Shown here: in pieces, positions 3,089 to 64,000 of the stretch | Position numbering within the stretch: position 1 is the first letter of the stretch | Layout: each line of letters opens with the position of its first letter | Origin: an uncultured Planctomycetia bacterium | GTDB lineage: Bacteria > Omnitrophota > Gorgyraeia > 2-02-FULL-51-18 | DNA: 64,000 nt | NCBI GenBank assembly: GCA_964606485.1 | Contig: CAZSGP010000005.1 | Location: 139,649 to 203,648 of the forward strand | Reading direction: 5' to 3' | Translations under genes and position numbers: made by a program | Notes under the pieces: generated by a model | What the model was told of the DNA's origin: nothing | What the model saw: only the letters and a program-made list of their open reading frames with translations | Database searches by the model: none

Positions 3089-3129
3089 AGGTATGGGGCA
3101 GACTCCGTCCATCTAAAATGATTTCCAAA

Positions 3130-3158
3130 AGTATACCCAACGTCTGTAACTAATTCAA
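3130..3158 (-). promoter_or_regulatory. Candidate sigma70-like promoter for gene A (TTGAAT, 17-nt spacer, TATACT, read on the minus strand)
   Basis: The reverse complement of 3130-3158 gives ttgaat-tagttacagacgttggg-tatact, about 40 nt upstream of the ATG at 3088. Confidence 0.3.
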
Positions 3159-3216
3159 ATTGATGGGGATATATAAATTTAATTAAGTTTAAACGGTTTT
3201 ATACGCGGTTAAGCGA

Positions 3217-19845: not shown

Positions 19846-19867
19846 AACGATCCGTTTCTTTAAAAAA

Positions 19868-19938
19868 CTGCCCCGCATGGATTCGAACCATGACAATCGC
19901 CTCCAAAGGGCGGTGTGCTACCATTACACCACAGGGCA
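19868..19938 (-). tRNA. tRNA-Gln (anticodon UUG)
   Basis: The reverse complement folds into a cloverleaf. The acceptor stem is UGCCCUG / CGGGGCA with a U1-A72 pair and G73. The D-arm is GUGU..GCAC, the anticodon loop is CUUUGGA (UUG), and the T-arm is CAUGG-UUCGAAU-CCAUG. Confidence 0.8.
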
Positions 19939-42673: not shown

Positions 42674-45600
42674 TTAGGCCGCTACCTGTGTGGTGTGAAG
42701 CGCGAGAATACTTAAGATGAGCCGGGTATTAAAGACCTTTTCAGGTTCGAGTAACCTAAACCGGTTACCCGAAAAGTGAACGTCCACTAGCTTCTGGAGC
42801 AGTTCTGGAAGCGATTTTGGATCTAAATTTTTAGACAGCGCAATCACGGTCAAAAGATAAAATGCTGAGGAGGACCCATCCACCTCACCGCGCTCGACTT
42901 CGGCGTAAGGCGCCGCACTTGAAAATTGAAGCGCCTTGGCGCGATCCGGAAAATACAACGTTCCCACATTTAATTTTTCGTTTTCTAGTGAATTTAGATC
43001 GGCACTAGGCTTAAACGACAGTTTCACTCCGCTCTGGGATAATTTCTGCAAACGATTTTGAATGGATTCGGCTTGATCACTCGACGCTTCACCGTACAGC
43101 ACGAGTTCGAGCAAGCGACCTTTGACGTGATCAAACTCAAGCGACGAATTGAGAATACTGGTTAAGCTTTCCAAAGCCTTTTGTGTTTTTAAATTTCCAT
43201 TCGCATCCAAGAAAAGTTCCATCGGGACGGGGATTGTTCCCGTTTGACCCGGAGCGACTTTCGCGGAAATAGAATCAGCGACCGCTTTCACGAATGCTTT
43301 TGATTCCTCTATACTTAAATCTTCCAATTGAGCTTCAATAGAATTCTTCGCCTGCGAAGAAAGGCGCTGAGCCTCTGCTAAATCCGCCACTCCGCTTTCA
43401 AGAACCGGATAATTTTCGAGTTTAAAATTAGAATTTATTTCTGAAAGCGGCGCCGTGCGAATCTCAACCGCTTCGGCAGACTTAAGCGTCACGAGCGTTA
43501 CAAAAGCTCCTGTTAAAAGAGGAAAGAGTTTGGGGAATGCTCCGGCCTTGTGAGAGGCGGCAATGCGCGCGCCTGAAATTTTAAGCGGCATCACACTCAG
43601 CTCGGCATGATTGGATAACAAGTTTAACTGAAATTTAGTTTGGCCCCCTTCTTCCCGTAGAAATTTTTCTAGCCTTTTTTCGTAACCTTTTTTTGTGGGC
43701 TCGGTAATTTTGAGCTCTAGTTTTGTACCGGGATTCCTTTGGCTTGTGATGGTAATCGTGTGCACGATCCCGCTTTGAACCAGTCCACGAAGCTCGCTCA
43801 ACGTTTGGTCGAGGGTTAGATTGCGTTTTTCGGAAAGACGGGCGGCATTTGGGGTGTCTATAAGATTTCGATATTCATTACCAACTTTTTGCCCCTGATT
43901 GATCGTTCCATTGGTCGATGCGTTATCCCTAATCTGCCAAACTCCATTGATGAAGGATAAATGCACATGCTCTCCAGAAACACGAGGGTTATCATCCGTC
44001 ACAATATCGTTGTCAAAACCACGGCCAATCTTATAGACCGCCTGCTTAAACCCATCAAGATTATAAAATTTCTGATCTTTAGTTCTCCATAAAAATAATC
44101 TATATCCGTAAATTTGGTAGATGAAAAATTCGTTGGCCGCCGCCAGCGTGAAAGCCGGACGAGACGTCGAAGCAACAGGAACCGTTTGCGCTGGAGGGGC
44201 GGCAATCCGCATCGTTGACTCAGGTACAGGCCCAAGCCATTGTAGCGTTGTCTCCTTAGAAGCATCTTGCGCTAAAAAATTAAGGCTACAGTTGCCGTTT
44301 CCATTGTTGTGCACACTCACCTGGAATCCGTATCGAAATGGTTTTCCGAGTTCAAACGCTAAAGATGGAGCCGTCGGCCTAAAAGCGCCTTTATCATAAT
44401 CTTGAATATAAGCGTGTATGCCGGCACTGTCTTGTTTATACCAAATTTTATAAACAGCCGATCCAACCCGCACCCAAACGTCTCCCATAAATGGCGCATT
44501 CTGAATAGATAGAGGCTTGACACTGCGCGCCGGACTCTTCAACTCGCGGATCCTGCCAAAGTATTCTTTAAGCATTTGCCGAGTTTTGATGTCCTCCATG
44601 TCCACCAACTCTTCTAATTTTTCTTTAGCCTGAATAACCCTAATTTCATCTGGAGTCATCGCGACCCCAATAAACGATTTTTTTGTTTCAAAAAAATGAA
44701 CTGCGTTTAATACATCTTGCGCGGAGTATTGAAGTCCAAAAAGACTGGCGCGAATTTCAGCTGGTTTTAAAGGCGGATCGATTAATCGCAGGACACGCGC
44801 GCAAAGATGTGGGTCTGTTTCATCAAGACCCTGCGTTTTGAAAACAGTTAGAATCGTGGCCATGGCAGGCGCATTGCGCATAACATTGGTGACACCTCTT
44901 AAACCTGCCGATCTAATAAGCTCTTCCCGTATTTTTTCAAATTTATTCGCGGGATCCAAAATTTCCTGTTGGGTTTTTGGTCTATGCGTTAAAAGTGTTG
45001 AGGCAATCACTTTGAGTCGCCTATCCAGCTCTGCTGGTGCCAAATCAGCCAACCGCGATCCTTTAACCTTGTCGCGGGTAAAGCCCGTTTTACTTTGATT
45101 ATCTTTTTTGAATTCGATCATTTCTTCATATGTCTTAAGACCGGGCTTAAGGATAATTTTGTCTCGTCGTTCATTCGGAATCACAAAAATATCCCCATCG
45201 AGAATATGCTGTGAAAGTCCAGGAACTGTGAGCAACTCAATCGGATTTGCGACAACAGACTGATCAATGGCAAAACGAATGTAATAGTCCTTATTGGTTT
45301 TTCTTAAATCCTTCACCAATTCGACATATGCGAGTGGGGTTCGCGAAACACTGTAAAGCTTTCCTTCAAAAAATTGGAGCAAACCCATCTCCAAATCTCT
45401 TTGGACTTCCTCTGAGCTGATTAAAAATCCAGGAGCTCCTTCAATCTCAAAGCGCCTTAGGTCACCGGCCCATTTTTTAAATGCTTCTATTTCAATTTTT
45501 ATTTGTTTGGGTTTCGTTGCGGATTGAACGTGAAGCGCATAATCCTCTGGACTCATACCCGAAAAACGGAAATCCGCGTTGGAGCTCCCTACTACAAACC

Positions 45601-48600
45601 CTCTTAAGATGTCTTTGGCCGCTTGTACATAATTAACGCTAAGATCTGCATCGGGTATTTTAACGGGCTTGCCTTGATGGTAACGCACCCTATTGTCGAT
45701 AAAAAAATCGGAGTTAGCTTTTCTTAATTGTCTGAGATAGGTTTCATAGTCATTCGCAGATTTTCCGATGAGGAACAATGATCCATCGGAATCAATATCC
45801 AAAATTCCTCTTTCTAAGTCTCTAAAGGCCTCGGTGTAACTGGGTTTTACACTCCCTTTATAATCCACAATCTTTTCCACGAAGCCGTAGCGAACCGAAG
45901 AGCTGCTCCAATTTCCGCCCAAAGAATAATAATGTAAAAAGCAAGCGGCCGCCGACTCTCGTTGCTCGTTTTGCAAAAGCGAAGCTTTTAGCTTCAAGCT
46001 CATTCCCCTGGGACCGCTGGAATAATACTCTAACTCTGCATTCGTACCGACGACACGCAAACGCGCCTGAGGATGTAAGAGGTAACACCGGCCTTTTGCA
46101 AAGTACCTGAATACGGGCCACCTAAAAATATTTTTTTCTTTCGGGTTTGTTATGCTTGAGTCATGCAACTCATAAAATATTTTTTCGGTGTTGTAATCTG
46201 CTTCCGCTGAAAGCCGCTCTTGTGCGCCTGGTTTGAACGGCTCTCCAATAATGGCGCATTCTGCCGCATTTCTTAGTGCGATAAAAGCCCTGTGTGCCTT
46301 GCGGTTGGACGCTCTCTCGCGCACTCCCCGATTGGGCTCAGTAAAAGATTCAGGGTCCTGATAAACATCCCAATGAAAACCGTTGCTAAAAAAAACTTTT
46401 CTTTTGATCTTGCCTTTTGACACACACTCAAATTCCAATGCGATAGGATTGGAGGGCGAGCCATCCCCCACATAAGCTTTGCCGGACAGGACATTAAGCA
46501 CGAATTTGGTCGGAAAATTTCCCGCCTTTCCTCTGGGTGCGACGAGCAAATCACCCTTTTTATCTGCCGTCAGCCTGAAATTGTCTCGGATGGCTTTTTC
46601 ATTATTAAGCTCAATAACTAGGTCGCCGAGCGCTTTGCCATTTAAAATTTTGGTGTGGTCCGCCGGCTCCTCGTCGGTGTCAATGGAGTCTGACACACTA
46701 AGCAATTCTTCCCGCATTGTAAAAGCGCTTTCCATGCCAGGTAAAGGGCGCCATCCCTCAAACGCAACCTGAGAATAAGTCCACTTAGTTTGCTCAATCT
46801 CCAAAATATCGAAGCTATCTCCATTAATACTCAGCGTTCCATTTTTTTCGTTAAACAAGTAATCCGCTTGTATCTGCTGATTATCGGAAACGAGTGCTCC
46901 TAGATCGGTTTGATTCGCCTGTACAAAATTCAATAAAAGCCCATTGTCGTGAGGTTTCACACTGATAGGACAAATAAGCAACCTTTCGATTTTGCGTCCG
47001 CTTTTTTTTCCTTCCAATGTTATCCAAATAAGATTTTTCCCATCTGACGCTCTCACCCAGGATGAGTAAATCGTTGAGCTGGGAAGAGAAGTTAGGCGAG
47101 CCCCCTGTGGGGGAGTTGTTTTAACCTTACGTGCGTCGCTCGCTTTTTGAAGCACGCTGAGCTCGAACATCAGCTTAAAAAATACCGGTCGCACCAAATC
47201 GGCATTTTGACCCTTATACTTTTTTTTCTCCATACGTACTTTATCTCTGCGAATGAGAAGGGTTACGAGTTCTTTTTGATTTTTGCAATCCAGAACGCGC
47301 ATCAACTCCGACAAATCACTCGCAGAAACTCCATCTAAGCCCTTCGCTAATTCGTCTATTTTCCAGGGCGTGAAAGCTTCAATTTCACTTTTTTCTTTTT
47401 TCGTAAAGATACCGGGGTTTACCATCCAACGCGCTTTTTTATCGTGCTGGTCCTCTTCAAACCGCTTGATTTCGTCGGTCGAATAAAAAGATGAGTTTTT
47501 GTGCGCCGCGGCTAGAACAATGAGCCCTGTCTTCAAAACCGAGAGGGCATGCTCTTGGTTAATGAGTCCGCCCAAAACATATTGCTCAATAATTTTTTCA
47601 TAATATTCTGTAGCGTTGCTGTCCTTTAAGCGTCGCTGCATGGTTTCTTCGTGTGCTTTGACAGTTTCCAGCACACCGGGAATTTTTAGAAAATTTTTTA
47701 GGTCTGCCTCGGTTACACGGTAGCCCCCTAGTAAATATTGGTTCAGCAGTTCGATAGCGTTGGGCAAATAATCTGTTTTGCGCACTCCCTTTAAATCACT
47801 CATCAAATGTTCGGGGTTATAGTCCGGATGCATGAAGAGAAGAAGGGTGTGAAGAAGCAGCCACCGCCTGCCCGATGCTGTTTTTCCATCCCAGGCCATA
47901 GCATCCACGGCAATCTTGGCATACTTGGCTCTCCGATCGGGCTCTAATTCAACGTAACTCTGGTAAGCATTGGATTGCAGCGTGAGAATACTGATCTTAT
48001 CTTTGGCTTGATTTCCCACGAGCGCCATTTCAACGCTAGAAGCCGCATAAAACGCGTTAGGATTTAACGTAAAACCTTTCTTATCTTTAAGCGCTTGGAA
48101 AATCTTTCGCGTTAATTCGAGCGCAAAACCATCGTCTATCCGGTTGTCTACTCGAATGAGCTCTTCGTTGTCAAAATTGAACACTATTTGCCTGGGCCAA
48201 TTCTGGTTGTCATCAGAATCGTCCGCGGATCTACCCTTCACGTAAAGACGACGCGAGGCGGCCGTCACTAAAAGAGTGATATAGTCTTCCAAGTCGCTGC
48301 CCTTCATAAGAATTAAGCGCGCGCCTTGAGTATGCGCCAAAATATCCTTCACCGCGTTTTCGCGTTCTTTGGGATTGTCTCTTAAAGAAGAAATGTAAGA
48401 TTCGATGGATGAGCGATTTGATTCGGAAAAACTGGCTAAACGAGCGCCTTTTACAGCTTTAAGACGCTCTGTTTTCTCGGACGATGCTAATGCAAGGAGT
48501 AAAAATGATTTTTCGAGGGAGTTCTGCTGAATATCACGAAAGATCTCCGAGGATTCAAGCATTTGATGGGCATGATTAATCTCATCTAGCCCCGAAAGCA

Positions 48601-51600
48601 ATCTAAATGAAAGAAAAACTAATTGGCGTTGAAAAGTCGATTTGTAATCAATATTGTTATAGGCGGGACTAGCATTCACATCCATCCAGGCTTCGTCAAA
48701 AACATTCCAAGTAAAGCAGTCCATTTTAACAATGGCTTCTATCGCTGGGGCAGCATCTCCCGCTTTTAAATGATCAATTAAATATGCATGGTTACCGTAA
48801 CCTTGAATAAAATAATCCAGCCATTGGGCCAATTCCTTGACGCTGCCCATTTCAACGGCGGCCCATGTGTATATCGCCAAGGTTTTAGGATCTGTTTTAG
48901 AAATTTTCTCAAGCTCCTGCTTAATTTTTTTTACGCCTTCAAAATTACCACCGGATTTTGCCAAGGCCAATACATAAGTCGCTTGTACCGTCGGTTCCAA
49001 AGAACGGAATTCTTCATCCATCGTTAACTGCGCAAAGTACTTTTTTACTTTTTCTAAACTTGAGTCGCTTTGCACTGCGGCCAAAGTGAGTATCGATCGC
49101 TCAAGGACTTCGTTAGGAAAAAATTGATCATTTGAAATTACACGATAAATGTCTTCGACCCGCTTTTCAGCCTCTTCAATAGCTGTTTGTCTATTGGGAT
49201 CCAAATCTGTCCATTGAACAGAACTAGAAGAGTTATTGTCGGGCCTTAGTCTCCGTTGCTGCGGATAAGGAAAAAAATCTGGAATTTCGCCACGTTTAAT
49301 TTTTCTTTGGAGATTAATCCAATACCCGTAGCGAATGATATCGGGGTGTTCTTTGACAAAACTCGCACGGTACGCCATCGGAATATAATCAAGAAACCAC
49401 TTCGGGAAAAAATCCAACGAAACACCTTGGTCGACATCGCTAACAGCCGAAAAATATTCCCCCAAAGACATGCCCTCAGAGTCTGAGACGCGCGTAATTT
49501 TTGGGAGAAAATGCATGTCCTCCAAATTTTCAAGATCATCAAAATCGTACAAAACGACACGTCCAAAATGAGTCACTCCAAAATTTTTTGGAAGCGCGTC
49601 CATTACGAAAATTCCGGCAGCAGCTAAATCCTTCAAGCAATAACCCCATTCTAGGACAGCTGCTGTTTTCTTTTCTTCGGGAACATCGGGATTATCCAGA
49701 AAAACATCCAGCGGCACCAATTTACGCTGTGCAAAAACCTCCTTGAAGATAACCTTTCCGTCCTTAAGGATTATGTTGGATGGCTCCCGCTCACCTTGGG
49801 GTGTCGCGTGCTCAATCAACTCCTTTAAAAGAGCTGGGTCAAAGTCAGATTCTTTAAATTCTAGAACTTGAAGCGTTATCGGATTTAATGCGCGACCAAC
49901 ACGGTCCATCCCCTGCACTTTTCGGTACATGCGCTTTATAAATTCTCGGATATTAACGCCCCCCTCCTCTCGCTGAAGCAGGGATTTCTTTGATGTGCTC
50001 TCTCGCGCATTTTTGAAAACATACCCAAAAGTAGGAAGCACAAAAGTATCAAGAGCCATCCCCTTCACGCCGGTCGCCCACTGAAATTTCTCACCTGGAT
50101 TAGTCTCTAAATGATTCCGCAAATTATGGACTAACTCCAATTTAGCCGGATGAGCGAAACCAACCGCAGAATAAATGGATGAGGGGGATTTATTTGGAAT
50201 AATCGAATGGAGGAAATCCAATAATTCATGATAATAATTCATTCCGGTAACATGAAAATCAATTCGCGTGTAGCCAAAGATATTGCTAACGTCCGCCTCA
50301 TTCGTCAGAACCGCATCAACTGCAATCCCCTTTTCAGTCTTTACCAGCGCGATAACGAAAGGGACTATTTTTTTGTCTGTCCGGATGCGTCCTACTAAGT
50401 AAGCACCTTTGTTGCGAAAAAAAATCTTTTTCCATATTTCAATCGAACGAATGGTCCTAAAAACCTTTTCCTCTTGATAGCGGCGAATATCTTTCTCCAA
50501 CATTTCGGCGGATAATTTCGAGTCTCGCTCCAAGTTTTCATACGGCGCTTCCACAAATCCTGCATCTTTTAGAATTCTTGCGATCGTCTCCGGACTCAAG
50601 TCTTTGTAGACTCGATAATAACGGTGAATAACCCCTTCGCTGGCGTACTCAATAGGCGTATTGACGTCCTTAAAAATTCTCCGCTCTATGGAGTTAAAGA
50701 AAATGATAGCCAAATCGGAATCCGGTCGTTCGCCTAACCATAAACTATAAATTTTTTGTAACGCTTCCCACGATTTTTTGTCTCTTAAACGATCACCCAT
50801 TAGGGGGGCAATTTCCGCAATCACTTTTGTCAACGCATCACGGTATAAATTGAGTCGCTCTTTGGCATTTTTTTGGCCCTCTTCCCAGAGTGATAGCTCA
50901 AATACTCTCTGAGCTCTTGCTGTAATTTCGGCATATCTGGATTGGTACTCATCGAAAGCCTTTAAAATCAGACGAACGATATGATCCGGTGAGACATTCG
51001 AGCGCTGATCGGAGACATAAATTGGCTTTGAAATACTTGATGATTCATCTCCGTTACCTTGAAATTCAGGCCGTTCCGCCAACCGCGCTCCACTCTTGGC
51101 TCTCCAATACCCCATCACTACCGTGGTCATGCCGTCTTTTTTGGGATAATCATTTTGGAAGCCGTCGACGGATTCGAAACCCGCCTCGTTTAAAATTCTT
51201 AGATAATTTTCTTTTTCGATCAGATACTGGTCCGAATAAAGATGGGACATGAAATACGCGGTCTCGAGTGTAGAACCTAAGTTACGCGCCGCAATTTGAG
51301 GGTTAATAGAAAGAAGATCTATTGTCAGAAGTCCGAACCGAGATGAAAGACTAGCCCACGATTTAAAGTGCTCGTACAAGTTTTGCTCCAACACGCCATT
51401 TGGAATAATTCGACCGCGATGCGTGTAAATGGCTCTTGAATCGGTGCGACGCCTTGCCGCGGCCTTGCGGTCTTTGGGTATCACAAACGGACGGTTATGG
51501 TCTAAAAAAGAGCGGACGTGTAAAAGATCCTGGGCTTTTGCGTCGAAAGGAGCTAGAAGCTCGTTCAAATTTTTTTCATAGAGAGCAGGGTCGTTGATAT

Positions 51601-54600
51601 TGCCAAATAACACCTGATGGGAAATATCCGCTTGGACGAGCCGCTCGTGCGTAATTTGGCGCGCTTCTTCGTTGTAATCTGCTCCAAACACGCGAACTGG
51701 ATGAGCCTCTAAATGAAGCCCGCGCGCGGTTTCGTTTTTAATCACGCCGTAAATAAATTCGAGGAGCATGCCGTTTCCACAACCCATGTCGGCGATGCCT
51801 TTGGGCTGTTCGTTGAGTTCTGCTTCTGAAAGAGCTGCGTCGCGGCGTCCGAAAATTTTAATCACGTTTTCCCGAAGATCCCGGAAATAAGTTTCATGGG
51901 AATTGCCACTGCCTTCTACGTTCATGGGCCGGTTGACGAGAAGCTCTTCTTTGTCCGGACCGCGGCGGTCAAAGTATTTTTCAATAAAATTTCGCTCTGC
52001 AAAAAATAAATAATACAAATTTGATAATTCAAAAGACGGCAAGTAGGAAACAGGAACTCCATAAGACCAGGCCTTGGACAGCGCGTAGAGCCCGCGCGGA
52101 GTAAACGAAACGGTGTCGTCGTTTATTTCAACCCAATGAAGCCGCGACAAAAAGTTAAACGCAATTTCAAGGCGCCGAGTTTGCCCGCCACAATCTTTTA
52201 TTTTAAAAGGACCTCTTAAATCAATAAGACCCCGGTCGGCCTTTTTGCGGATTTCAATCATGAGAGGTCCGGTGAGCATTCCGATCACAAGCGGACCGAT
52301 TAATGGAAGAGATGTTGATTTTAAAATGGCGCTGTCACACAAAGAAGAAAATTCCGCAGTTTTAAGCAAGTCCGCGGCCGGCGGATCGCGGGGATTTGAA
52401 AATAAAAATTCATCCATTTTTTTGAGTGTGGGAATAAAATCCACAAATTTTTCAAAAGATTCCGCAACTCCAAACACTTCGCGGCCCTGTTCAGTGACTT
52501 CGATTGTCATGGCCCCTGTCGCGCGCTTTCCAATGCGCCTGACCCACCCTTGGGCTTCCAAACCTCGGATCGCCCCGTGCAGATAACCCATATTGACGCG
52601 AACTTTACCCTGGCGGAGTGTGCTTGCAATGTCGCGCACCGTTACCGTCTTGCGGGAATCGTAGGTTTCATTTAGAAGCTCTAGCACCTTTTCACGGCGA
52701 AAAAATTCTAAAGTGGAGGCAATGCCAATGCCATCCGTGTGCCTAAAAATTTGCGGCAGAACTTCTTTTTGAAGTTCTTTATTTTTTCCAATTTCATTGA
52801 GAATTTTTTTGTTGGAGGATTTGACGGGTTCTGCGAGACGGGCGCCGGAGCTGTAGTGCAAACCCAAGATTTGAATCCCTGGGTCTCGAACGATCACCGG
52901 TAATCCGTTGTTTAATAAATCAAGTTTCGTATGATTCCCATAAAGCTTCCGATTGGCTGCATCAAAAACAACCACCTTCTCTTCGTCGGCTAAGTGCTCA
53001 AAAAAATCTGCGAAGTGCTTGTCTCCCTTGCCCAACGTACCGGCGGATTCTTCCGGATTAAATCGAGAACTTCCGTCAACGCTCACAATAAATCGCCGTC
53101 CGTCAATTTTGACCATAAATACTTTGACTGAAGCGTTTGTCGAACCCAAAGAAACGGAGGACTCATAAGCTTCTAAAAATTTAATGAGCCGCTTACGAAA
53201 CCACTCGCTCACAATTGTCCGGTGAGCGTCTTGCTGAAGAATAGGGTCTTTGGAGACATAGTTGCGCAACACCGCCAAGGGATCTTCACGGACTTCACAG
53301 AGCCGGTCAAATTGGCGCAAGTATTCCGCAGCCGTAATTTTTGCTTTGAATACATGACTTAAAAGCACTGAAGCAGCCTGGTAACTGCCAAAATGTCTGG
53401 GACTTTTATGAAAAAGAACGTTCGCCCATAGAAACGTGTTTAAATAAGCTTCCGCTGAACCATTTGCCGGGATCAGCGTGTTTCCAGACCCAGGGACGTC
53501 ACGATCCACAACCAGTCCTTGTCTCTGAATGATGCCCTCTAGCCATACCGGCCCCACCTGCAAACCGCCGTTGACCGAGATATCCGATTCGGTGTATTCC
53601 GCAGCGCCCGTGCCGCGATCGGAGTCCTGACATTGTAAATCAGTGGCGGCAAACATGGTGACCTGCTCGGGAGTGCTCCAGCCCGTAGCGACTATCAGAC
53701 GACCAGGACCTTCTTTGTTCACGTCTTCGGCAATTCTGCGCAGATCATTGTGCATGTGCTGTGTGGTCGCTTGCACATTTCCAAAATGCACAACTTGAAC
53801 GCCGGCTTTAACCAATTTGCGAATATTTTCTTCGGTAAAAGCCCGGAGCCTTCCAGCTTTTTCATCCACCAATCTTCCGTAATAGCCCAGCACCAGTTGG
53901 TCCGGGTTTAAATTTTTAATCTCCGGATCAAGTGCCATGAGCTTTGGGTCCTGTGAAACGCGGCGCTTGGCTTCTTTTTTAATCGCTAAAACTTGGTCAA
54001 TCGTTGGCGCATCCGGATCCGCCGTGTCTCCAAAAAGTTCAAGGCAGATGTTTCTAAAAAACTCGTTTGAAATTTGGTGATTGTCGCCATTCGTAACGGA
54101 GATCAGCCGAATGTTTCGATCAATCGGCGCCACTTCCTCCCGATGCACAGAGCTCACGGCATTTGTTCCATCAGCTGTGCGCAAACCGCCGCTGGTGTAA
54201 TCAATATCCGACAACCGGTCCATGTACCCCAGCCACTCATATGGCACATCCCCCTTCATGACGGTTGAACGCTCTGCATTGGAATAACGTCCCCGGTTGC
54301 GGTACGTGTGAGTGGTCATCCAAACCAAGGCATTTTTAAGAACACTTCCTTCATGCTCATACAAAACTCTCTTATAGAGCGGCAACAGTCCGCACTGCCC
54401 GTCATTGGCAAATAAAATCGCGTCTTTGAAAAGATTTTTAGGGGATTCTTTCTTACGTCTATTTTCTAAATAAGCCGTTAATTGCAGGGATGCTTTCGCA
54501 AAAAATTCGGTGAAACCCTGCCAGCTTGCAGAACCATACTCAGGGCCATAGCGGTAAAGGAGCTTGGTGTAAAATTCATGCTCATCTTTAATAAAATAAG

Positions 54601-57130: not shown

Positions 57131-57142
57131 AACCCTTAATTG

Positions 57143-60100
57143 TTACGCCGCTCTCTCCGCCGCGCGAGCAACATTGGCAGAGCGAATTTGTTCGGAAATG
57201 GCTTTCACGAGTCTGGCCATCACTGTGCGGCCACCCACGTTAACGGCTGTTGTTCCGAAGCGATTTCCAGATCCCAAAGACAGACCCGCCGACACGACAT
57301 CGTCGAGTGACAACTGTGAAACCGAGCCTTCCACGCCATAAACGAGCCAGCGTAAATCTCCATCTTTCAAATTTGGAGGAAGCTCTTCGTATCCAATGTT
57401 ATCTGCGTTACGAAACGCGATCACCATTTGCTTCAGTGCTGAAGGATTCAAATAAGGATTTGATCCCGCTTTGCGGCGCAGGGCTTTTAGGAGCGAATGA
57501 GCTAACGTTTGTCCATCCGTCCTATCGAAACAGAGCGTGTGAACCTGCGTTAAACGAAGGTGTTCGATTTCCCGATCTATTTTCTCTGCTAAGGCAGTGC
57601 TTGGCGTGACGAGAAGAATGGGCTGCCGGCTTGTCCTGATCTTTCGAAGGGCATGTTGGATGCTCGCCGGGTCGCTCTTTAAATCGGCCGGTAAAATCAT
57701 GGGGAGAATTTCCGAGGGCGCTTGAAGATTCACCACGCCTTGCGCAGAAAGCCCGGAGCGCACTGACTGTAAATTGGCTTGATGAACGGTCTCACTCGAA
57801 GCAAACGTGTTGAGATCTGCGCGAAGCGCTGCGGCATTGGAAATATTAAATTCATTTGCAGAAAATTGAATCTCATTCGCCTGCGCAGAAGGAACTTGAG
57901 AAATTGAAAATAGGATTAATTTCCCGGCTAGTAAAATCGGTACGATGGCTTTTTGGAGAGACCCTAGCGAAAGCGCAAGCCGGGAGCCCATCTCTTCTTT
58001 GGTCGCGGCATCGTCTGTTCCTTGTTTTTTAGAGGCCTGCGCGGCTTGGCGGCGAGTAGCACCCTTTAGCCTTGCTTCCACTCGTAGCGCTTTGGACGAA
58101 CGCTCCATTTTTCCGGAATCCGAAAGACGGGAGCCTGACGTTGCTTGAATTTCAAGAAGCGCTTCTTTAAAATTGGCCAGATGGTCCATTCCCTTGAGCG
58201 TGCGCCCGGCTTCAAATTCTTTTCTGGCTTCGCGACGTTCCTCGTTTAATTTTTCCAAAAGTGCCTGAATTTTTTTGTCACCCTGAACAATTTCAAATTG
58301 AGGGTTGAGACCCTTATCGATCCGGCTCTGCAAGGTCTTGTCTCGAATCAGCCTGGGCTCATTTTCCTTAACAAAAACACCGCTAGTTACTTCACCAAAA
58401 AGAATAATCCCTTGTTTGTATCCTCCGAGTGTTTCACGACGCTTGGCCACGATTGCTTCAAATTCTTTTTCATCAATGGCCAAAATATCCAACACCCGGA
58501 CAATTCCCGTTAAATCTTCCGGCGCTTTTGCCAAATCAGAAAATGCTCGTTCGGCCTCGTCAGAATAAACAAGCCACAACTTTTGCTCATGCTCTAAAAG
58601 TGAGGCGATTTGCTTGAGATTCGAAATTTCAAAACGCCATTCTTCAACGGTACCTTTAGAGTTCACCATCGGCATTTGAGCTAAATGAACTTTGTCTTTG
58701 AGTGTAGCCGCAACGCGTCTAGCAATCTCTTCGGTCGGCACCGACGCGGGCGTTAACAGATGGATGGGTGCGTAGACATGATCCCGGGTTTGTCCAAAAT
58801 AAACGAGTGTTTCGAGCGGTTTCGGGTGTTCAAAACCATTTTTCTCGCGCTCGATATAAACGGTAATCTCCGCCTCCCGACCGTCCGGATGCGAGGCTAC
58901 TACTTTCTTAGTCACAATCTTCGAGTCTTGCGCGAGGCGTGCGCCGGATGGACGTGCCAGCGAAGCGTCGACATCTTCTATGAGACCCCCAGTTTTAAAA
59001 TAGGTGATAAGGCCACGCGGGGGAAATCCTACAAGAACTAAACTCATCAAAGCATCGGTGATTTTTTTAATATCTTGCCACGACTTGGTCGAAAAAGTAG
59101 CTGACTCTCGGTGGCCCGGTATTACCTGCACCGTAACCGTTGTTAAAATATTATTTTTATCTTGGGCGTTCTTTATGTCGCGTGAGACCCAAAACTCGAA
59201 ATCACCGTACGGGGATCCGGCGACACCCCTACTCTCTGTTTCCTGATCGGCGAGGCGGGCGGCACTGAATGTGCGATACATTTGAATATACTCCTCCGCT
59301 CCGCCACCCTCAATCCAGTCGGGGTTGTAACGGGCAACTTGCAACAAATATTCAAAATATTGATCCGTTTGCTTGACGTTCAAAAAGTCAGCAACACGAT
59401 CTAATATTTGCTGTGCAGAAATCTGTCTTTGTTGGTCGGCTTCTTTGCCAGTATTTGCTTCAAAACCATCCACCAACTCAAGCGGCGTTCCGTTGGCTTC
59501 TTTAAAATCTTGAAGCCCGCCTCGGCTTGTCGCAATGACAGCATCTAGCAGTAAAGCCGCTTCCTGATTGCTGATTCCACCGGGCTCATCAATGGACGGC
59601 ATGAAGAAAAGATCCGAGCCCGCACAAATTTGCTTCGCTAAAACCGGATCAAATTTATTTTTAAATACAAAGCGGCCCTGATATTTAGGGTGCGCCTCTA
59701 AAAATGTCTTTAAAAATTGTTCTTGTTCTTTTCCGAGAGTATCTCCCGCTGTCCCTAACACCGCCATCTGAACGTTCATGCCGGAATCATTGCGGGTATC
59801 CAAAATTGCTTCAAGCAATGTTCGCCCATCACTTAAAACCGTCGAAAGAATATTCAATCCTTTTTGCTTAACAATTCGCGTCACGACACCCACAACTGTG
59901 GCATTGGCGTCTTGAGCTAAGCCCAGCTCCTGCTGAAGTGCTAATTTATTTTTTTGTTTCCAATCAGCGAGCGCTCTGCCGTCCATTTGGGCAAGCGGCT
60001 TGGACGGCTTTACAAAACGGGGTCCTGCCAAAGCTTTTAAATTTTCCGGTCGATGAGACTCAGCTTTGATTCGGTTATAAACAGGAGAAATTTTATAACT

Positions 60101-63100
60101 CACGGAACTCAACACGCCGTCAAGTCCGTAACCTCTATTCTTGGTCATTCCTTCGCGCGCATGACCTTTGCTGACAAATAAAATTTTATCCGCCCAAATC
60201 ATTCCGCCTTTTATAAAATTATGACGGCCCTCTATGGAACCACCTTCAAAAGTGGAATAATGCTGTAACCCTTTATTTTCTCTGGCATCTCTTAACCAGT
60301 ATGGGAGATTTGTTAATCGGAAAACGTCGATACTTGCTCCGGATTGCCCCCCAATAACCCCTCTTTCGATTAAGGTGCTACGGAGAGAATCAGAAGCAGC
60401 CAAATAACCTGGGAACATACCCTGATATTCTAAGTTATGAATCACCTGATAACTTTTTGGAGTTTCTCGGAGTGGCCATGAATCGGACGCGTAATTTTCT
60501 TTCATGAAAATAGGTCCGAGTGCCGTCTGCCAATCGTTAAACTGGAATTTTTCGAAGGGAATGGCAAGCTGTCTTGAAATTTCAATCGCCGCAAGAGGAA
60601 GCAAAATGCCTTCGATGTAGCCGCCGACCGAATCGGGGTTTGGCTCTGCATAAAGCGTGTTGAAAAAATTTCCGGATGGATCATAAATTTGAATCACCGG
60701 TACCCCGTCCTGCTCGACCGTGAATACTTTTAGCGGAATTGACCCGGACCCAACGGGAATTTCAAGATCCATTAAATGCTGCCCACCATACGCTTCCAAA
60801 TATTTTTCAAGCGTTCCAATTTTGGGATCACCGACAATATCCGCGCTAAAAAGTGGAGTCACTACCATTGCAGCGACGCCTTTTTGCGCTATAGCCCAAG
60901 GCTGTTCATTCATAAATACACCTTGTCCTCCGCCGCCGGGACCGATGCGTTTCAAACGATTCCCGGATTTGTCTTTGACCGGCATTTCCATGGCCACCGA
61001 CAAAACTCCGAAGAGCCCATTTTCACGCGCTTGCTTGACTCGGTTTACCAATTGCTGGGCTAACTCGGTATTCACAGAGGATGCTTTCGCTAAGCGCGCA
61101 GCGGAAATAAAAGCCTTTTCGTCCTCAATTTTTAACGTAAACAAAGTCTCCCCGCTCACACTCGCAAACTCTAAGAAATTTTGGGGGAAAGATTTATCGG
61201 ATGGGACATTCAAACGTTCAATCACAACGTCGTCCACGTTTCTGGCGGCGATCAAAGCAACCACCTCTTCGGCAGATAAGTTTTCGTATAGGCCTTCGGC
61301 ATTGTTTACTCCGGCGAGGCGGGCGGCGTTATTATTTGTACGCGGAGTGCCAGCCATTTCCATCTTATCCAAGAACCTTATTTCTACATAATTAAGATGC
61401 TCGTCGCGCTTACCTTCTTGAATTTTCACTTTCCACATTTCATTCGCTCCGATTCCAAATTCACGAGCCGCTCCCAGAAGCCTCGGAGAATATTCATCTA
61501 TTTTTTTTCCTACCCTTATAGCAACATCGTGTTGTTGTCTTATGCCGCGCACCGTAATAACCACAATTAAGGTCTGACCCGGTTGCAACTCTTGGACGTA
61601 GGGATCAATTTTTGCGGGCAATTGATCAGGTGACGCTTTGATTTCCGCGAGACGCGCTCCCCGAACCGATCTTCGTTCACGCTGAGCCTTGCGATTAGCA
61701 ATTCTACGCTCATCATTGGCAAGATTCGTTAGCGCACGGATTTCTATACCCGCTTGGGCTTCGGATAACGCTATTTCCGCAAATGACGGTTTTAAGTCGT
61801 TAATTGCTATAAATAAACTGGCTACCTTTTGACCCGATGCGTCTAACACCGCTTTCACATAACGGCGTCTAAATTTATACAGATCATTCACCACATTTTT
61901 TAAAGAAAGTTTTTTGTAATGGGTTTTCGCTAACAATAAATAGTGGGTGCGGGTTTCTTTAAGCGTTTGCTCGCTAGTGGGCTTGACTGGTTTTTCTTCC
62001 GCAAGGCGTGCGCCTTGTGAGCTCAGTATTGTGGTAATCAAATCCGCAAGCTCTCCAACCGAGCGCGCTCTTAAGAATGGCTCAGATTGAACTTCGTCCG
62101 GAATATTAAATTCATCTTCTAATTTCTGAATCAAATTGATGTCGTCGAGAGAATCAGCACCCAGATCTTCATTGAGTAAACTGTTTCGGGTAATCTTGTG
62201 GGCAGGCACACCGAGCTGCTCGGAAACAATTTTTTTGACTCTATCCAGCACGGAAAGATTTTTTTGCGTGGCTTTGGTGGCGAGGCGGGCGCCTTCACCT
62301 TCCAACCAGAACCCTCGTTTAAGTTCTCCTAGATGATAAAGAGTGGCCCTTCTGAGCGTAGGGCCCACACGACTCGTCGCTTCCAAAATAAACGGCACGG
62401 CGCGGTCTAGCTCTTCTCGTAAGATTTGGATTTGTTTCGGAGAAATGGGCTGTGCTCTTCTCAGATTAATTTCAATCGGACCTAAGGCACGGGCTCTCAG
62501 AGAGAAAAAGGCGGAGCGAAAATATTGAGCGTGGTCGTCCTTGGCACCGTTAACCAAGTGATCGAGGTCTTTTAAAACCTTTTGAACGGCCAAGAGCTGG
62601 GTGCGGCCTTGAGTGAGTTCACGAGCTATTTGCTCAAGGTGCTCTTCGTTAATTCCATCTAATTTTTTTGAAAAAACATCATCCGGATCAGACTCCCAGT
62701 GGCCACCCCATATTCCTGTTCTAGGATCAGGTCGATAGGGCATCTCATCTGCTGCCAGGCGGGCGCCATTGGACGATTCTTTTTGACGCGCTTTCCGAAT
62801 CTCCTCCGAGCGTTTCTCGGCGCGAAGATTTTCAAAAACAATCGCCACAAACGCGCTGAAACCCCCGATTCCTATTAACGCCAGTGAAACGATATCCGAA
62901 ATACTGGTTGAAAGACGTGCACCCAGAGTGCCATCTTCTCCGCGACCGTGATACCAATCTCGAACAATCTGAAGCTGTGCGGCCCTCGAATTAATATACT
63001 CTTTCCCTTCTTTCGCCATTTCATCCAAATTTGGTATGTGGATATAAAGCATGAGGCGTCGATCGACAAGCTTGGCTAATTCGGAAAGCTCGCGTTTGCA

Positions 63101-64000
63101 TATCTTCTGGGTTAGTCCGTACGGGGCCTCGGATTGATTGGAAAGATCAGTAGTCTCAAACCCATTCTGGATTTGTGCCAAAGTATCGGTTTTTATTTTG
63201 TCGTCCGAACCCTTAGGGTCCACCAGCGCATACGCGGCCATCATGTAGGCTTTTCTTAAGGGAACAACATTTTTAAGAATATCACTTGGATGCCCAGAAA
63301 CTCTTAACTGAGCGGCGTATCGGTTTGCTGTTTGTGTAAAATTTTCTTTCTCGCCTCTTATCTGGTTTTCCGCCAACCGCGCGCCCTTTGTAGCCGGAGT
63401 CGAAATCATTCCTGTCTCCGCGACAAATTTTTCCCCTTGAGGCTCAAACCGGAATGCCGGAGTTCTAAGAATCGTTAAATCTCTCAAATAAAATTCAAGA
63501 ATCACGCCGCGACCCGAAATGACGTGGATATACTGCGTGCCCGCGTCAACAAACCCTACGGCGAACGCCGGGAATTGAGTGGTTTCACCCTGGGTTAACG
63601 CCACTTCCTTGCCGCTCGCTAGCGTCTCGGGAGAGTCCGTCGTATACATTACTTCACTGAAGTTTGAATTGGTTGTCACGACCACAGCAGGATCATTGTG
63701 AGAATGGATTTTTGTCTTGCCGCCTTCTTCCTTGAAATAATGGGCAAATACATCAATCACAAAACCCGGTCTCCCGTCCTTGGAGGGCAGTTCAATAGAA
63801 AAGGGGTTGTTTCGCTCGTAATCCTTATCGCCTGGTTTATAAATTAAAGTTGGGAGGATCTCCGCGAGATCTTTTTGAATCTGGGGATCTCGAAGCAATT
63901 TGCCCAATTTCTCCGAAATCCTAATACTAAAACGCGCTTTGGCCTTTGCCTCTTGAGGAACCCAGTGAGCCAAGGACTGTTCATTCGTATCTCCATAGTC
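57143..64000 (-). CDS. Giant multi-enzyme protein of at least 2285 aa, with the N-terminus beyond the window end. Contains a TM helix, an ACP module, a GlgA-like GT-B domain and a second hydrophobic segment. At least 11 GARLA motifs.
   Basis: The ORF track gives 57143..63973 from a TTG, but the frame stays open upstream (DYGDTNEQSLAHW...) to the window edge. It ends 12 nt before the start of the 4818-aa gene. Confidence 0.75.
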   Translation of the reverse strand, partial: DYGDTNEQSLAHWVPQEAKAKARFSIRISEKLGKLLRDPQIQKDLAEILPTLIYKPGDKDYERNNPFSIELPSKDGRPGFVIDVFAHYFKEEGGKTKIHSHNDPAVVVTTNSNFSEVMYTTDSPETLASGKEVALTQGETTQFPAFAVGFVDAGTQYIHVISGRGVILEFYLRDLTILRTPAFRFEPQGEKFVAETGMISTPATKGARLAENQIRGEKENFTQTANRYAAQLRVSGHPSDILKNVVPLRKAYMMAAYALVDPKGSDDKIKTDTLAQIQNGFETTDLSNQSEAPYGLTQKICKRELSELAKLVDRRLMLYIHIPNLDEMAKEGKEYINSRAAQLQIVRDWYHGRGEDGTLGARLSTSISDIVSLALIGIGGFSAFVAIVFENLRAEKRSEEIRKARQKESSNGARLAADEMPYRPDPRTGIWGGHWESDPDDVFSKKLDGINEEHLEQIARELTQGRTQLLAVQKVLKDLDHLVNGAKDDHAQYFRSAFFSLRARALGPIEINLRRAQPISPKQIQILREELDRAVPFILEATSRVGPTLRRATLYHLGELKRGFWLEGEGARLATKATQKNLSVLDRVKKIVSEQLGVPAHKITRNSLLNEDLGADSLDDINLIQKLEDEFNIPDEVQSEPFLRARSVGELADLITTILSSQGARLAEEKPVKPTSEQTLKETRTHYLLLAKTHYKKLSLKNVVNDLYKFRRRYVKAVLDASGQKVASLFIAINDLKPSFAEIALSEAQAGIEIRALTNLANDERRIANRKAQRERRSVRGARLAEIKASPDQLPAKIDPYVQELQPGQTLIVVITVRGIRQQHDVAIRVGKKIDEYSPRLLGAAREFGIGANEMWKVKIQEGKRDEHLNYVEIRFLDKMEMAGTPRTNNNAARLAGVNNAEGLYENLSAEEVVALIAARNVDDVVIERLNVPSDKSFPQNFLEFASVSGETLFTLKIEDEKAFISAARLAKASSVNTELAQQLVNRVKQARENGLFGVLSVAMEMPVKDKSGNRLKRIGPGGGGQGVFMNEQPWAIAQKGVAAMVVTPLFSADIVGDPKIGTLEKYLEAYGGQHLMDLEIPVGSGSIPLKVFTVEQDGVPVIQIYDPSGNFFNTLYAEPNPDSVGGYIEGILLPLAAIEISRQLAIPFEKFQFNDWQTALGPIFMKENYASDSWPLRETPKSYQVIHNLEYQGMFPGYLAASDSLRSTLIERGVIGGQSGASIDVFRLTNLPYWLRDARENKGLQHYSTFEGGSIEGRHNFIKGGMIWADKILFVSKGHAREGMTKNRGYGLDGVLSSVSYKISPVYNRIKAESHRPENLKALAGPRFVKPSKPLAQMDGRALADWKQKNKLALQQELGLAQDANATVVGVVTRIVKQKGLNILSTVLSDGRTLLEAILDTRNDSGMNVQMAVLGTAGDTLGKEQEQFLKTFLEAHPKYQGRFVFKNKFDPVLAKQICAGSDLFFMPSIDEPGGISNQEAALLLDAVIATSRGGLQDFKEANGTPLELVDGFEANTGKEADQQRQISAQQILDRVADFLNVKQTDQYFEYLLQVARYNPDWIEGGGAEEYIQMYRTFSAARLADQETESRGVAGSPYGDFEFWVSRDIKNAQDKNNILTTVTVQVIPGHRESATFSTKSWQDIKKITDALMSLVLVGFPPRGLITYFKTGGLIEDVDASLARPSGARLAQDSKIVTKKVVASHPDGREAEITVYIEREKNGFEHPKPLETLVYFGQTRDHVYAPIHLLTPASVPTEEIARRVAATLKDKVHLAQMPMVNSKGTVEEWRFEISNLKQIASLLEHEQKLWLVYSDEAERAFSDLAKAPEDLTGIVRVLDILAIDEKEFEAIVAKRRETLGGYKQGIILFGEVTSGVFVKENEPRLIRDKTLQSRIDKGLNPQFEIVQGDKKIQALLEKLNEERREARKEFEAGRTLKGMDHLANFKEALLEIQATSGSRLSDSGKMERSSKALRVEARLKGATRRQAAQASKKQGTDDAATKEEMGSRLALSLGSLQKAIVPILLAGKLILFSISQVPSAQANEIQFSANEFNISNAAALRADLNTFASSETVHQANLQSVRSGLSAQGVVNLQAPSEILPMILPADLKSDPASIQHALRKIRTSRQPILLVTPSTALAEKIDREIEHLRLTQVHTLCFDRTDGQTLAHSLLKALRRKAGSNPYLNPSALKQMVIAFRNADNIGYEELPPNLKDGDLRWLVYGVEGSVSQLSLDDVVSAGLSLGSGNRFGTTAVNVGGRTVMARLVKAISEQIRSANVARAAERAA
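59400..60650 (-). other. Second GlgA-like GT-B glycosyltransferase domain (in gene C)
   Basis: ...FEKFQFNDWQTALGP (compare GlgA HAHDWHAGL), VGVVTRIVKQKGLNIL (GRL..QKG..L motif) and FFMPSIDEPGGISNQEAALLLDAVIATSRGGLQD (compare PSRFEPCGLTQLYAL..G..P.V..TGGL.DTV). Confidence 0.55.
62090..62290 (-). other. Acyl/peptidyl carrier protein-like module (phosphopantetheine attachment motif) in gene C
   Basis: VKKIVSEQLGVPAHKITRNSLLNEDLGADSLDDINLIQKLEDEFNIPDEV. The LGADSLD motif is near-identical to E. coli ACP (LGADSLDTVELVMALEEEF). The Ser codon is at 62150-62152. Confidence 0.6.
62840..62905 (-). other. Predicted transmembrane helix in gene C
   Basis: IVSLALIGIGGFSAFVAIVF, about 20 hydrophobic residues, immediately after a GARLSTS motif and followed by the charged ENLRAEKRSEEIRKARQKE. 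Confidence 0.5.

Follow-up and report, generated by a model that had tools for sequence, protein, structure and literature searches.

We analyzed a stretch of 64,000 nucleotides (hereafter, the window) of contig CAZSGP010000005.1 (positions 139,649 to 203,648 of the forward strand) in the GenBank assembly GCA_964606485.1, which is titled as an uncultured Planctomycetia bacterium and has the GTDB lineage Bacteria; Omnitrophota; Gorgyraeia; 2-02-FULL-51-18. The window contains three giant open reading frames (ORFs), here called genes A, B, and C, which all lie on the minus strand in one common frame, are uninterrupted under translation table 11, and contain complete recognizable enzymes. Their products are punctuated by a recurrent motif of the form [SA]-[GA]-A-R-[LM]-[AS]-[EAD], a bare element of five to seven residues with no conserved flanks, and the results below indicate that this motif marks the boundaries between modules in a large family of exported giant proteins. 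All instances of the motif listed in a preliminary description of this DNA were recovered on the minus strand, in frame with the three large ORFs. That description had placed the motifs of all three giants at 43560–63385; this interval spans only genes B and C, and both instances in gene A lie outside it. Three instances were added to its list: A502 (AARLA), C1956 (GSRLS), and B4024 (GSRLA), each named here by its gene and the residue at which it starts.

Gene B (42677–57130, minus strand, as are all features of the three giants given below) is a complete ORF of 4818 amino acids (aa) that ends in QVAA and has its own ribosome-binding site 13 nucleotides (nt) past the stop of gene C. Its product consists, in order, of a signal peptide, a conserved N-terminal domain (N-domain), a GT5 domain, an AprA-like methyltransferase, an isocitrate dehydrogenase kinase/phosphatase (AceK), unknown modules, an FHA domain, a hydrophobic anchor, and a conserved C-terminal module, and it carries nine motif instances. 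The signal peptide (57044–57130), which was read from the sequence and not with a predictor, has a basic n-region, a hydrophobic core, and an SVA/AP site, and is putatively of the Sec type. It is followed by the N-domain (aa 30–505; 55616–57043), which has a large helical insert, and directly past this domain lies the first motif, B533 (GARLS; 55520–55534), in a region with a predicted local distance difference test score (pLDDT) of <50. Downstream of the starch-synthase-type GT5 domain (B746–1001; 54128–54895), B1429 (GARLA; 52832–52846) is located 31 aa ahead of the AprA_N domain, with which the AprA-like module begins (B1460–2005; 51116–52753; AprA_N, winged helix, and Methyltransf_36 in Pfam), and B2014 (GARLA; 51077–51091) is located 9 aa past the end of Methyltransf_36 (profile position 266 of 268). 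B2014 is also the motif that precedes the complete AceK module (B2048–2631; 49238–50989; model positions 9–577 of 582). Farther downstream are B2895 (GARLA; 48434–48448); the motif-like B2936 (GARLI; 48311–48325), 41 aa from B2895 and non-canonical at position 5; B3343 (GARLT; 47090–47104), in which the Thr at position 5 is a minor variant of the family; and B4024 (45047–45061). The FHA domain (B4366–4421; 43868–44035) is followed 8 aa past its envelope by B4429 (AARLS; 43832–43846). The C-terminal module (42677–43573) comprises motif B4520 (GARIA; 43559–43573), a hydrophobic anchor segment (43481–43540), a domain of about 270 aa, and the -AA carboxy-terminus.

Gene C (57146–64000) encodes at least 2285 aa, with an N-terminus beyond the window edge, and ends in ERAA. 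It contains 12 motif instances, two transmembrane (TM) helices, an acyl-carrier-protein (ACP) module, a glycogen synthase (GlgA) module, and the conserved C-terminal module (57146–57990). After C206 (GARLA; 63371–63385), a lone TM helix (C370–388; 62837–62893) is bracketed by C360 (GARLS; 62909–62923), 10 aa ahead of the start of the helix, and C412 (GARLA; 62753–62767), with an inter-motif unit of 52 aa. The last residue of C570 (GARLA; 62279–62293) is located about 6–10 aa ahead of the natural ACP N-terminus. The ACP module (C581–662; 62015–62260) is complete, matching full-length models (in NCBIfam from position 3–4 to 81 of 83, reaching C660), and C663 (GARLA; 62000–62014) stands at the natural ACP C-terminus, 8 aa past the end of the PP-binding envelope. 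C781 (GARLA; 61646–61660), C892 (AARLA; 61313–61327), and C967 (AARLA; 61088–61102) follow, the last about 40 aa upstream of the complete GlgA module (C1034–1576; 59273–60901; positions 27–475 of 477 in TIGR02095), and C1580 (AARLA; 59249–59263) lies at the exact stop of stand-alone GlgA proteins. The remaining instances are C1686 (GARLA; 58931–58945), the Ser variant C1956 (58121–58135), and C2005 (GSRLA; 57974–57988), which occupies the conserved site ahead of the C-terminal anchor helix (C2015–2033). A single-sequence AlphaFold model of C555–800, covering ACP and three motifs, was uninformative (mean pLDDT 44).

Gene A (2–3112), the third family member, encodes at least 1037 aa, with its C-terminus cut by the window, and has a signal peptide and an N-domain as in gene B. 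This N-domain is 28–30% identical to the N-termini of the giants of two relatives (loci L009 and L075); the search gave no direct hit between the N-domains of genes A and B, and their identity in an alignment is 33%. The first site after the N-domain, A502 (1595–1609), is canonical. The second, A698 (GARLQ; 1007–1021), which the preliminary description had listed, is present and possibly a chance occurrence, as it is non-canonical and shuffled versions of gene A contained at least one GARL in 78 of 2000 cases. Gene A also contains a DNA-binding-type HTH_31 domain (aa 789–831; 620–748), which is odd because the product of gene A is predicted to be exported.

The motif is strongly enriched in these proteins. 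The shuffling test proposed in the preliminary description bore the motif out: GARL occurs in seven copies in gene C (shuffle mean 0.095) and six in gene B (shuffle mean 0.148), and none of 2000 shuffles that preserved the composition reached these counts. Among the 4-mers of genes B and C combined, GARL ranks first, with 13 observed and 0.25 expected, and ARLA second, with 12; none of the ordinary genes in the window contains GARL in frame. In the window and its close relatives, the density of [GA]ARL[AS] was 2.3 per 1000 aa in ORFs of >1500 aa and 0.02 per 1000 aa in ORFs of <600 aa, i.e., the giants are enriched approximately 100-fold relative to the ordinary proteins encoded in these genomes. 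Loci from other phyla had 0.00–0.02 per 1000 aa, varying with ORF length.

To place the motif in a wider context, we searched 1.84 billion cluster representatives (50% clustering) exhaustively with HMMER, using the N-terminal module as the query, and obtained 9215 proteins at E ≤ 1e-3 and 5570 at E ≤ 1e-30. In the best 150 of the 9215 matches, the module was always found at approximately residues 1–540. Although represented by 9215 clusters, the N-terminal domain family has no Pfam or NCBIfam model and merits its own family definition. Motif statistics were calculated for 151 family representatives (443,212 aa; longest protein, 7482 aa). Here too, no 4-mer was more frequent than GARL, whose 574 copies are 28 times the expected number; the core [GA]AR[LI][AS] was observed 642 times against 12.8 expected, and [GA]AR[LM][AS] occurred 778 times. 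The core was carried by 107 of the 127 family proteins of ≥ 1000 aa.

The products of genes A and B and the relatives' giants have in common an N-terminal module of about 500 aa that is preceded by a signal peptide, whose family consensus, read from the sequences, is AxA/AP. The order along the family chain is signal peptide, N-module, first motif (median residue 591), hypervariable units, a GARLa site, anchor, and C-terminal domain, and successive motifs have a median spacing of 275 aa. The middles of gene B and its relatives show no mutual similarity in BLAST, and the relatives' units include hexokinase, PGI, FBPase, GlpX, GH77, PAS, amylase, and protein kinases. Motifs are equally common in relatives carrying hexokinase, PGI, FBPase, PAS, or amylase modules, so the link that had been proposed between the motif and the methyltransferase, AceK kinase, or FHA domain embedded in the giants of the window was rejected. 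The cargo of these signal-peptide-bearing giants (in the window and in the loci L005, L009, L013, and L018) is central metabolism of a cytoplasmic type, i.e., AceK, GlgA, ACP, hexokinase, PGI, and FBPase. Such cargo needs ATP, S-adenosylmethionine, or sugar nucleotides, a topological paradox that would be sensible if the units act in another cell.

The conserved C-terminal part of the family consists of the GARLa site, about 12 aa, the hydrophobic anchor, and then a weakly conserved domain of about 280 aa. We considered this module as a protease and rejected it, as its alignment holds a few conserved Gly, Pro, and hydrophobic residues and no candidate catalytic residues. The carboxy-terminus is [AS]A in 97 of the 151 family proteins (AA in 64 and SA in 33), i.e., in nearly all of those not cut by a contig end; candidate meanings of the -AA end are a degron, a signal for a PDZ or tail-specific protease, and a secretion signal. 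Two proteins that seemed to stop naturally right after a motif (P0008 and P0061) were discarded because both are cut by contig ends.

Two relatives illustrate other gene arrangements. In relative L084 (positions 1–4750; GCA_023265555.1, JAHFSV010000056.1), UDPGP, GT5, NTP-transferase, and GlgA, modules of the kinds found in the giants, are encoded by separate co-directional genes, which adjoin two T2SSE ATPase genes, a DUF1573 gene, and a patatin gene. Both of the module genes whose N-termini were read have their own signal peptide, and two of the unfused proteins end in AASRISLAA and GGLAVAA. This row of genes resembles the giant genes in an unfused form. A groundwater contig (L085, positions 1–23266; ERZ909605) has two tandem giants, like genes C and B, with homology restricted to the C-terminal module, and tandem giants may be a common arrangement.

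We then examined the anatomy of the motif in the 151 representatives by scanning each core position with the other four fixed. Position 1 was G in 618 cases and A in 160; position 2 was A (778), S (65), T (41), or G (28); position 3 was R in 778 of 922; position 4 was L (636) or M (142); and position 5 was A (639), S (139), or T (47). S or A was preferred at −1, and E, A, or D at +5. The five core positions hold 2.6–4 bits each, whereas the flanking positions hold <0.5 bit each and, apart from −1 and +5, ≤ 0.15 bit. Because only the short core is conserved and the flanks are not, the element is a short linear motif rather than the best-conserved part of some repeated domain. From −5 to +14, the residues around the motif have a hydrophobic fraction of 0.22–0.24, compared with 0.32, and are enriched in Pro, Ser, and Thr; beyond this segment, the composition returns to the background.

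At the nucleotide level, 25 GARLA instances from the window and its relatives are written in 24 different 15-nt spellings, so the statement in the preliminary description that the motif is conserved as protein and not as a DNA repeat holds, and the spellings that it quoted are correct. Leu is encoded by each of its six codons and Ser from both of its codon boxes, and there is no conservation of nucleotides outside the 15-nt motif. Third codon positions carry 0.15–0.44 bit, compared with 1.4–2.6 bits at first and second positions. GGC/GCC, GCG, and NTG are over-represented, and this residual synonymous codon bias is real; part of it may arise from single-base toggles between accepted residues (Gly GGC/Ala GCC and Leu YTG/Met ATG).

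The position of the motif relative to domains was tested with 57 motifs in eight proteins, in which Pfam envelopes cover 17.8% of the sequence. None of the 57 motifs fell within an envelope (P = 1.4e-5), in agreement with the earlier observation that they lie between recognizable domains. Motifs followed within 12 aa of 6 of the 24 domain ends, compared with 0.75 expected, a result reached in none of 5000 randomizations, and the description of the motif as punctuation is upheld. It typically starts 4–9 residues past the natural C-terminus of the upstream enzyme, as seen for ACP in gene C (domain end 655, motif start 663), Methyltransf_36 (2005 and 2014) and FHA (4421 and 4429) in gene B, hexokinase in L005 (415 and 422) and L009 (1431 and 1439), and FBPase_C in L018 (2272 and 2276), and the next domain usually begins 16–42 aa downstream. 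The GlgA, ACP, and AceK units are complete enzymes according to full-length NCBIfam models; GlgA and ACP have the motif at their natural C-terminus, and in an alignment, stand-alone GlgA proteins terminate at the TFS/AARLA junction of gene C. The site behind the N-module falls in a segment of pLDDT <50 within a model of mean pLDDT 76. Motifs have been gained and lost at orthologous boundaries. The suggestion that motifs stand immediately before TM segments applies to C360, C2005, and B4520, and to the conserved pre-anchor site; family-wide, the tendency is weak, with a TM helix within 30 aa downstream of 21 of 774 motifs (2.7%, compared with 1.5% of random positions).

The variant of the motif is a property of the whole protein. 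In the family protein P0055, GARL is used at 27 of 27 sites; GARM is used at 11 of 11 sites in P0125 and 9 of 9 in P0138; and GTRL is used at 12 of 14 sites in P0122, 8 of 9 in P0144, and 6 of 6 in P0088. The heterogeneity in L/M usage among 77 proteins is highly significant (chi-square p = 8e-40), and the variant types are scattered over the tree of the N-module, indicating that switches have occurred several times. In one groundwater genome, another giant lies ahead of a GTRL protein (P0154; 8 of 9 sites). Homology between the two is confined to the last 350 aa (61% identity), yet the neighbor has GTRL at 4 of 4 sites, three of them outside the homologous segment. As Thr at position 2 makes up about 4% family-wide, GTRL in both neighboring giants is not explained by site-by-site inheritance, and a rare variant common to two otherwise unrelated giants of one genome argues for one common reader. 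A passive linker or independent relics would not switch in concert, whereas polyprotein junctions co-evolving with their protease do. Based on these results, we consider it very probable that the motif marks module boundaries and that a common factor, co-evolving with it, reads it.

The conserved leader domain is a candidate for this factor. Comparison of the N-domain with Pfam, NCBIfam, and the sequences in the PDB gave nothing significant, the window's own copy had no Pfam hit at all, and none of 22 members reached significance against the TIKI-superfamily profiles PF01963, PF04187, and PF05139. In an AlphaFold2 model built from six sequences (pLDDT 76; predicted template modeling score 0.63), a helical insert of about 300 aa divides a parallel beta core, and this predicted fold bears a modest resemblance to the Tiki/TraB/ChaN/EreA fold (TIKI superfamily). 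In the N-domain, D71, H73, and E101 are invariant and H463 is nearly so; E101 lies 28 residues past H73, and in the model these residues are located at strand ends. In RRSP, the 2His/2Glu set that defines active TIKI enzymes is E3900, H3902, E3930, and H4030 (PMC6254334), a spacing like that of D71-x-H73/E101/H463, with Asp as the first acid in the N-domain; the comparison is one of spacing and of position in the model. The parallel beta-sheet core, the putative catalytic residues at strand ends, and the order acid-x-His...Glu(+28)...His resemble features of the TIKI superfamily, which includes sequence-specific endopeptidases (Tiki and RRSP), whereas the helical insert between the Glu and the second His and the Asp in place of the first Glu are unlike it. 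That this Tiki-like leader domain is the protease is only a lead. Scans of the giants with Pfam and NCBIfam found no C80, C39, S8, or chymotrypsin-like domain, C39 and S8 being absent from genes B and A.

The remainder of the window is an ordinary diderm-bacterial chromosome. It contains purB, purQ, purL, purF, purM, purD, glyA, hisG, prs, ftsH, clpX, glmU, dnaB, bamA, lpxD, lpxC, lpxA, and ispH, so the giants are flanked by purine-biosynthesis and lipopolysaccharide genes. The PurB encoded next to gene B is 72–79% identical to PurB of Candidatus Omnitrophota metagenome-assembled genomes (MAGs) and 50–59% identical to that of all other phyla, which identifies the window, on this sequence criterion, as chromosomal DNA of Candidatus Omnitrophota; a giant ORF directly upstream of purB is also found in many relatives. 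Several GTDB representative MAGs (L001–L016) with PurB of 72–79% identity, some with synteny of the giant genes, are titled "uncultured Planctomycetia" or "Candidatus Eisenbacteria," and judging from this similarity, the titles are probably taxonomic mislabels. An Rfam scan of the window found one tRNA gene (19868–19938, minus strand), between clpX (18598–19896) and a GHMP kinase gene, and no other family; because this gene overlaps the region around the annotated TTG start of clpX, the true clpX start is probably further downstream. A two-partner secretion pair, consisting of an ShlB/FhaC-type transporter (24631–26379, plus strand) and a TPS-domain protein with a beta-propeller (1011 aa; 26382–29417, minus strand), is unrelated to the motif; GARL is absent from both proteins. 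An exact look-up of gene B returned no record, a homolog search with aa 151–1000 of gene C found none, and a search of genome contigs with aa 1411–2643 of gene B found no relative.

We next considered what the motif does. It can be regarded as a short linear recognition element placed a few residues past the natural C-terminus of the units of giant, putatively Sec-exported multi-enzyme proteins, and the best single explanation, to which we give about an even chance of being right, is that it functions in site-specific proteolytic processing, with the motifs as candidate sites. In this explanation, the giant ORF would be a bacterial polyprotein and the motifs its endoproteolytic processing sites. 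The signal peptide would carry the chain across the inner membrane, the Tiki/TraB/EreA-like putative hydrolase domain at the N-terminus would emerge first, with the first site right behind it, and the chain would be cut at each motif, releasing complete enzymes such as ACP, GlgA, and AceK; a cut at the last site would free the last unit from the C-terminal membrane anchor. All sites would be recognized by one genome-encoded reader. The proteolytic nature of the reader, its identity with the N-domain, and the bond at which it would cut are points that we infer. As Arg is the most invariant residue, it is the most natural P1 position (GAR/LA), and cuts at GA/R or L/A are possible. Cleavage after [GA]A, which would recreate a native -[AS]A end, was judged a weak proposal because a native GA end occurs in only 2 of 151 proteins while the motif mostly has GA. 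In a broader and more tentative version, which we would not put forward as the probable one, the giant ORFs are "protein operons," in which dozens of enzymes, metabolic as well as regulatory and each complete, are carried in one Sec-exported chain and separated at G-A-R-[LM]-A by a dedicated co-evolving endopeptidase, possibly the Tiki/TraB-like leader domain; once released, the enzymes might function in the periplasm or pass to a host or prey cell. This version would amount to a phylum-wide cellular equivalent of viral polyproteins, with more than 9,000 family clusters.

Several observations weigh against proteolytic processing or against the N-domain as its agent. In about 17 of 97 complete family members, a motif lies inside the C-terminal helix, 10–15 residues from the end, where a cut would detach just a short peptide. 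Punctuation is not universal: in the proteins closest to the GlgA unit (42–47% identity), the motif is missing from the corresponding boundary, and the chain continues into a beta-rich domain. Motif pairs only 15–50 aa apart also occur. These three observations are compatible with a recognition element with gained and lost sites and leave room for docking or tagging without cleavage. Regarding the N-domain, a Foldseek search with the model gave nothing significant (EreC at E = 0.13), and Pfam matches among 22 members were all below threshold (Cofac_haem_bdg, i.e., ChaN, in three, best E = 0.055; DUF5682 in five; DUF5694 in two). The TIKI superfamily also includes esterases and a haem binder. 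No N-domain column was associated with the site variant beyond the permutation null: the top difference was 0.59 for the L/M variant (95% null value, 0.64) and 0.95 for the A/T variant (95% null value, 0.98), so the N-domain as reader is something we infer and not a result. At the nucleotide level, the Arg codon of the motif is CGN in 54 of 58 cases, compared with 39 expected, and never AGA (genes B and C and the loci L002–L075 and L081).

One alternative is that the motif is a docking or recognition element that is not cut, i.e., a C-terminal tag of each unit that is bound in the intact chain by a chaperone or holdase, by a secretion or translocation component (e.g., of the nearby machinery resembling a type II secretion system or type IV pilus), or by an Arg-modifying enzyme. 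The concerted variation within genomes shows a common reader and not its chemistry, the motif in the C-terminal helix of some complete proteins is at a place where cutting seems pointless, unfused relatives have motif-like tails (AASRISLAA) beside T2SSE genes, and the prevalence of [AS]A carboxy-termini suggests that C-terminal recognition matters in the family. We nevertheless consider docking rather unlikely: the location of the motif at the ends of complete enzymes, in unstructured Pro/Ser/Thr-rich spacers, is a hallmark of polyprotein junctions, an uncut folded chain of 5000–7000 aa would be hard to reconcile with passage through a secretin, and no binding domain was found to accompany the motif. 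A passive role, either as a structural element (helix cap or linker staple) or as the relic C-terminal tail of exported proteins that became fused, is suggested by the related pattern of family C-terminal tails, (Q)GAR[LM]A...[AS]A at the stop, by the unfused gene array of L084, and by the fact that stand-alone GlgA stops at the start of the motif. However, a relic would decay, whereas the core keeps its 2.6–4 bits per position amid essentially random flanks; this, the concerted switch across non-homologous parts of two proteins of one genome, and the gain and loss of motifs at orthologous boundaries make a passive role improbable.

The biased codon choice (CGN for Arg, GGC/GCC, GCG, and NTG, with residual information at third positions) would fit a GC-rich 15-nt element (GGC GCG CGS YTG GCS) acting in mRNA processing, pausing, or recombination, and peptide-bond skipping by the ribosome, induced by the nascent peptide and giving separate chains with no need for a protease, would be a translational equivalent. 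The diversity of the GARLA spellings, the use of Met and Thr variants, the lack of conservation outside the 15 nt, and the Rfam result, with one tRNA as the only family in the window, speak against such a nucleic acid signal. The 2A skipping peptides need a longer conserved upstream stretch, and the motif has no conserved upstream stretch. We therefore regard a nucleic-acid or translation signal as highly improbable. Finally, G, A, R, and L are all common residues, and A698 is compatible with chance, yet a chance origin, a composition effect, or an ORF-calling artifact has practically no probability: chance is refuted by the shuffles and the family-wide counts, the enrichment over ordinary proteins is approximately 100-fold, the result was replicated in 151 independent representatives, and the ORFs are unbroken under table 11 with complete enzymes inside. 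Processing at the motifs thus stands as our preferred explanation.

The preferred explanation has parallels in known systems. Two features of polyprotein junctions are found here, namely, a short consensus in unstructured linkers between complete units and a consensus that shifts in concert. Viral polyproteins (cut by 3C/3C-like, NS3, or potyviral NIa proteases) likewise combine complete proteins in one ORF with junctions of 4–7 residues in flexible linkers, and their junction consensus drifts with the protease of the lineage, parallel to the GARL/GARM/GTRL switches. Unlike viral polyproteins, the giants lie on a cellular chromosome, have no recognized protease domain, and gain or lose junctions between close relatives. 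MARTX toxins are also giant secreted proteins of unrelated domains with short inter-domain sites in unstructured segments. Their in-chain cysteine protease domain (CPD), which cuts at several sites, has the consensus small-Leu-small in unstructured inter-effector segments (PMC2900308); G-A-R-L-A would fit this consensus if cut between L and A, and the N-domain is only a candidate for the corresponding protease. RRSP, for whose fold superfamily a resemblance is predicted in the N-domain, is itself a MARTX effector (PMC6254334). In contrast to MARTX toxins, the giants have no C80 CPD, RTX repeats, or inositol hexakisphosphate logic (as judged from Pfam); their motif is far more specific, with five fixed positions including an invariant Arg and up to about 30 sites per protein; their cargo consists of complete central-metabolism enzymes and not toxin effectors; and they are apparently exported by a Sec signal peptide and not by a type I system.

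Two bacterial signals resemble parts of the motif. The "double-glycine" pairs accepted by C39 peptidases include GA, AA, and GS, which are found at positions 1–2 of the motif. Double-glycine sites, however, have a conserved amphipathic leader upstream and nothing conserved downstream, and the motif is the reverse, with ≤ 0.15 bit at −10 to −2 and a conserved downstream R-[LM]-[AS]. A few instances (C360–411 and the pre-anchor site) resemble the tripartite LPXTG, PEP-CTERM, and GlyGly-CTERM signals in that a short spacer separates the motif from a TM helix, after which a basic cluster follows, but most motifs are internal without a TM helix, about 280 aa follow the anchor, and the window showed no sortase, exosortase, or rhombosortase.

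According to Seymour et al. (2023; PMC10066038), the giant ORFs of Omnitrophota show poor conservation and have few annotated domains, and their roles are poorly understood. For the giants called "Archaeovorins," cleavage by C39 or S8 domains has been suspected, and information on the cleavage points was stated to be lacking (West-Roberts et al., 2023; bioRxiv 10.1101/2023.11.21.568195). C39 domains have been reported at the N-termini of other Omnitrophota giants in that study and in a 2026 preprint (10.64898/2026.06.07.730766), and the latter describes "multi-enzyme metabolic clusters" rich in PF08323 and PF00534 in complete Omnitrophota genomes. The proteins described here come from the same phylum and have in common with these the PF08323/PF00534 glycosyl transferases, methyltransferases, kinases, a signal peptide, and TM anchoring. 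They differ in size, being of 1–7.5 kaa, compared with ≥ 30,000 aa for the Archaeovorin class and ≥ 10,000 aa for the 2026 catalogue, and in having no C39 or S8 domain in genes B and A, the N-terminus of gene C lying outside the window. The words motif, cleavage, linker, and polyprotein are absent from the 2026 preprint, and neither it nor the West-Roberts paper mentions a junction motif, a cleavage point, or the N-terminal domain found here. A literature search for Omnitrophota and polyprotein returned nothing relevant, and "GARLA" returned only unrelated words; no description of the motif was found in the literature on Omnitrophota giant proteins, consistent with the preliminary description, which knew of no described motif of this form.

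Whether the Omnitrophota giants exist as single chains or as cut pieces is a stated open question in the papers that describe them, and in one of these, the missing information on cleavage points blocked structural analysis. Our results suggest that the motif is punctuation of the polyprotein or multi-effector type in a new setting, and they address this question. The motif provides residue-level candidate junctions for an N-domain family with thousands of members, so that structure prediction and annotation can be carried out on computationally separated, module-sized pieces of each giant. The question of cleavage is now directly testable, with a conserved leader domain named as the candidate protease. 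If processing at the motif is confirmed, it would represent a new specific protease/site pair and would show cellular organisms using polyproteins to an extent known so far mainly from viruses.

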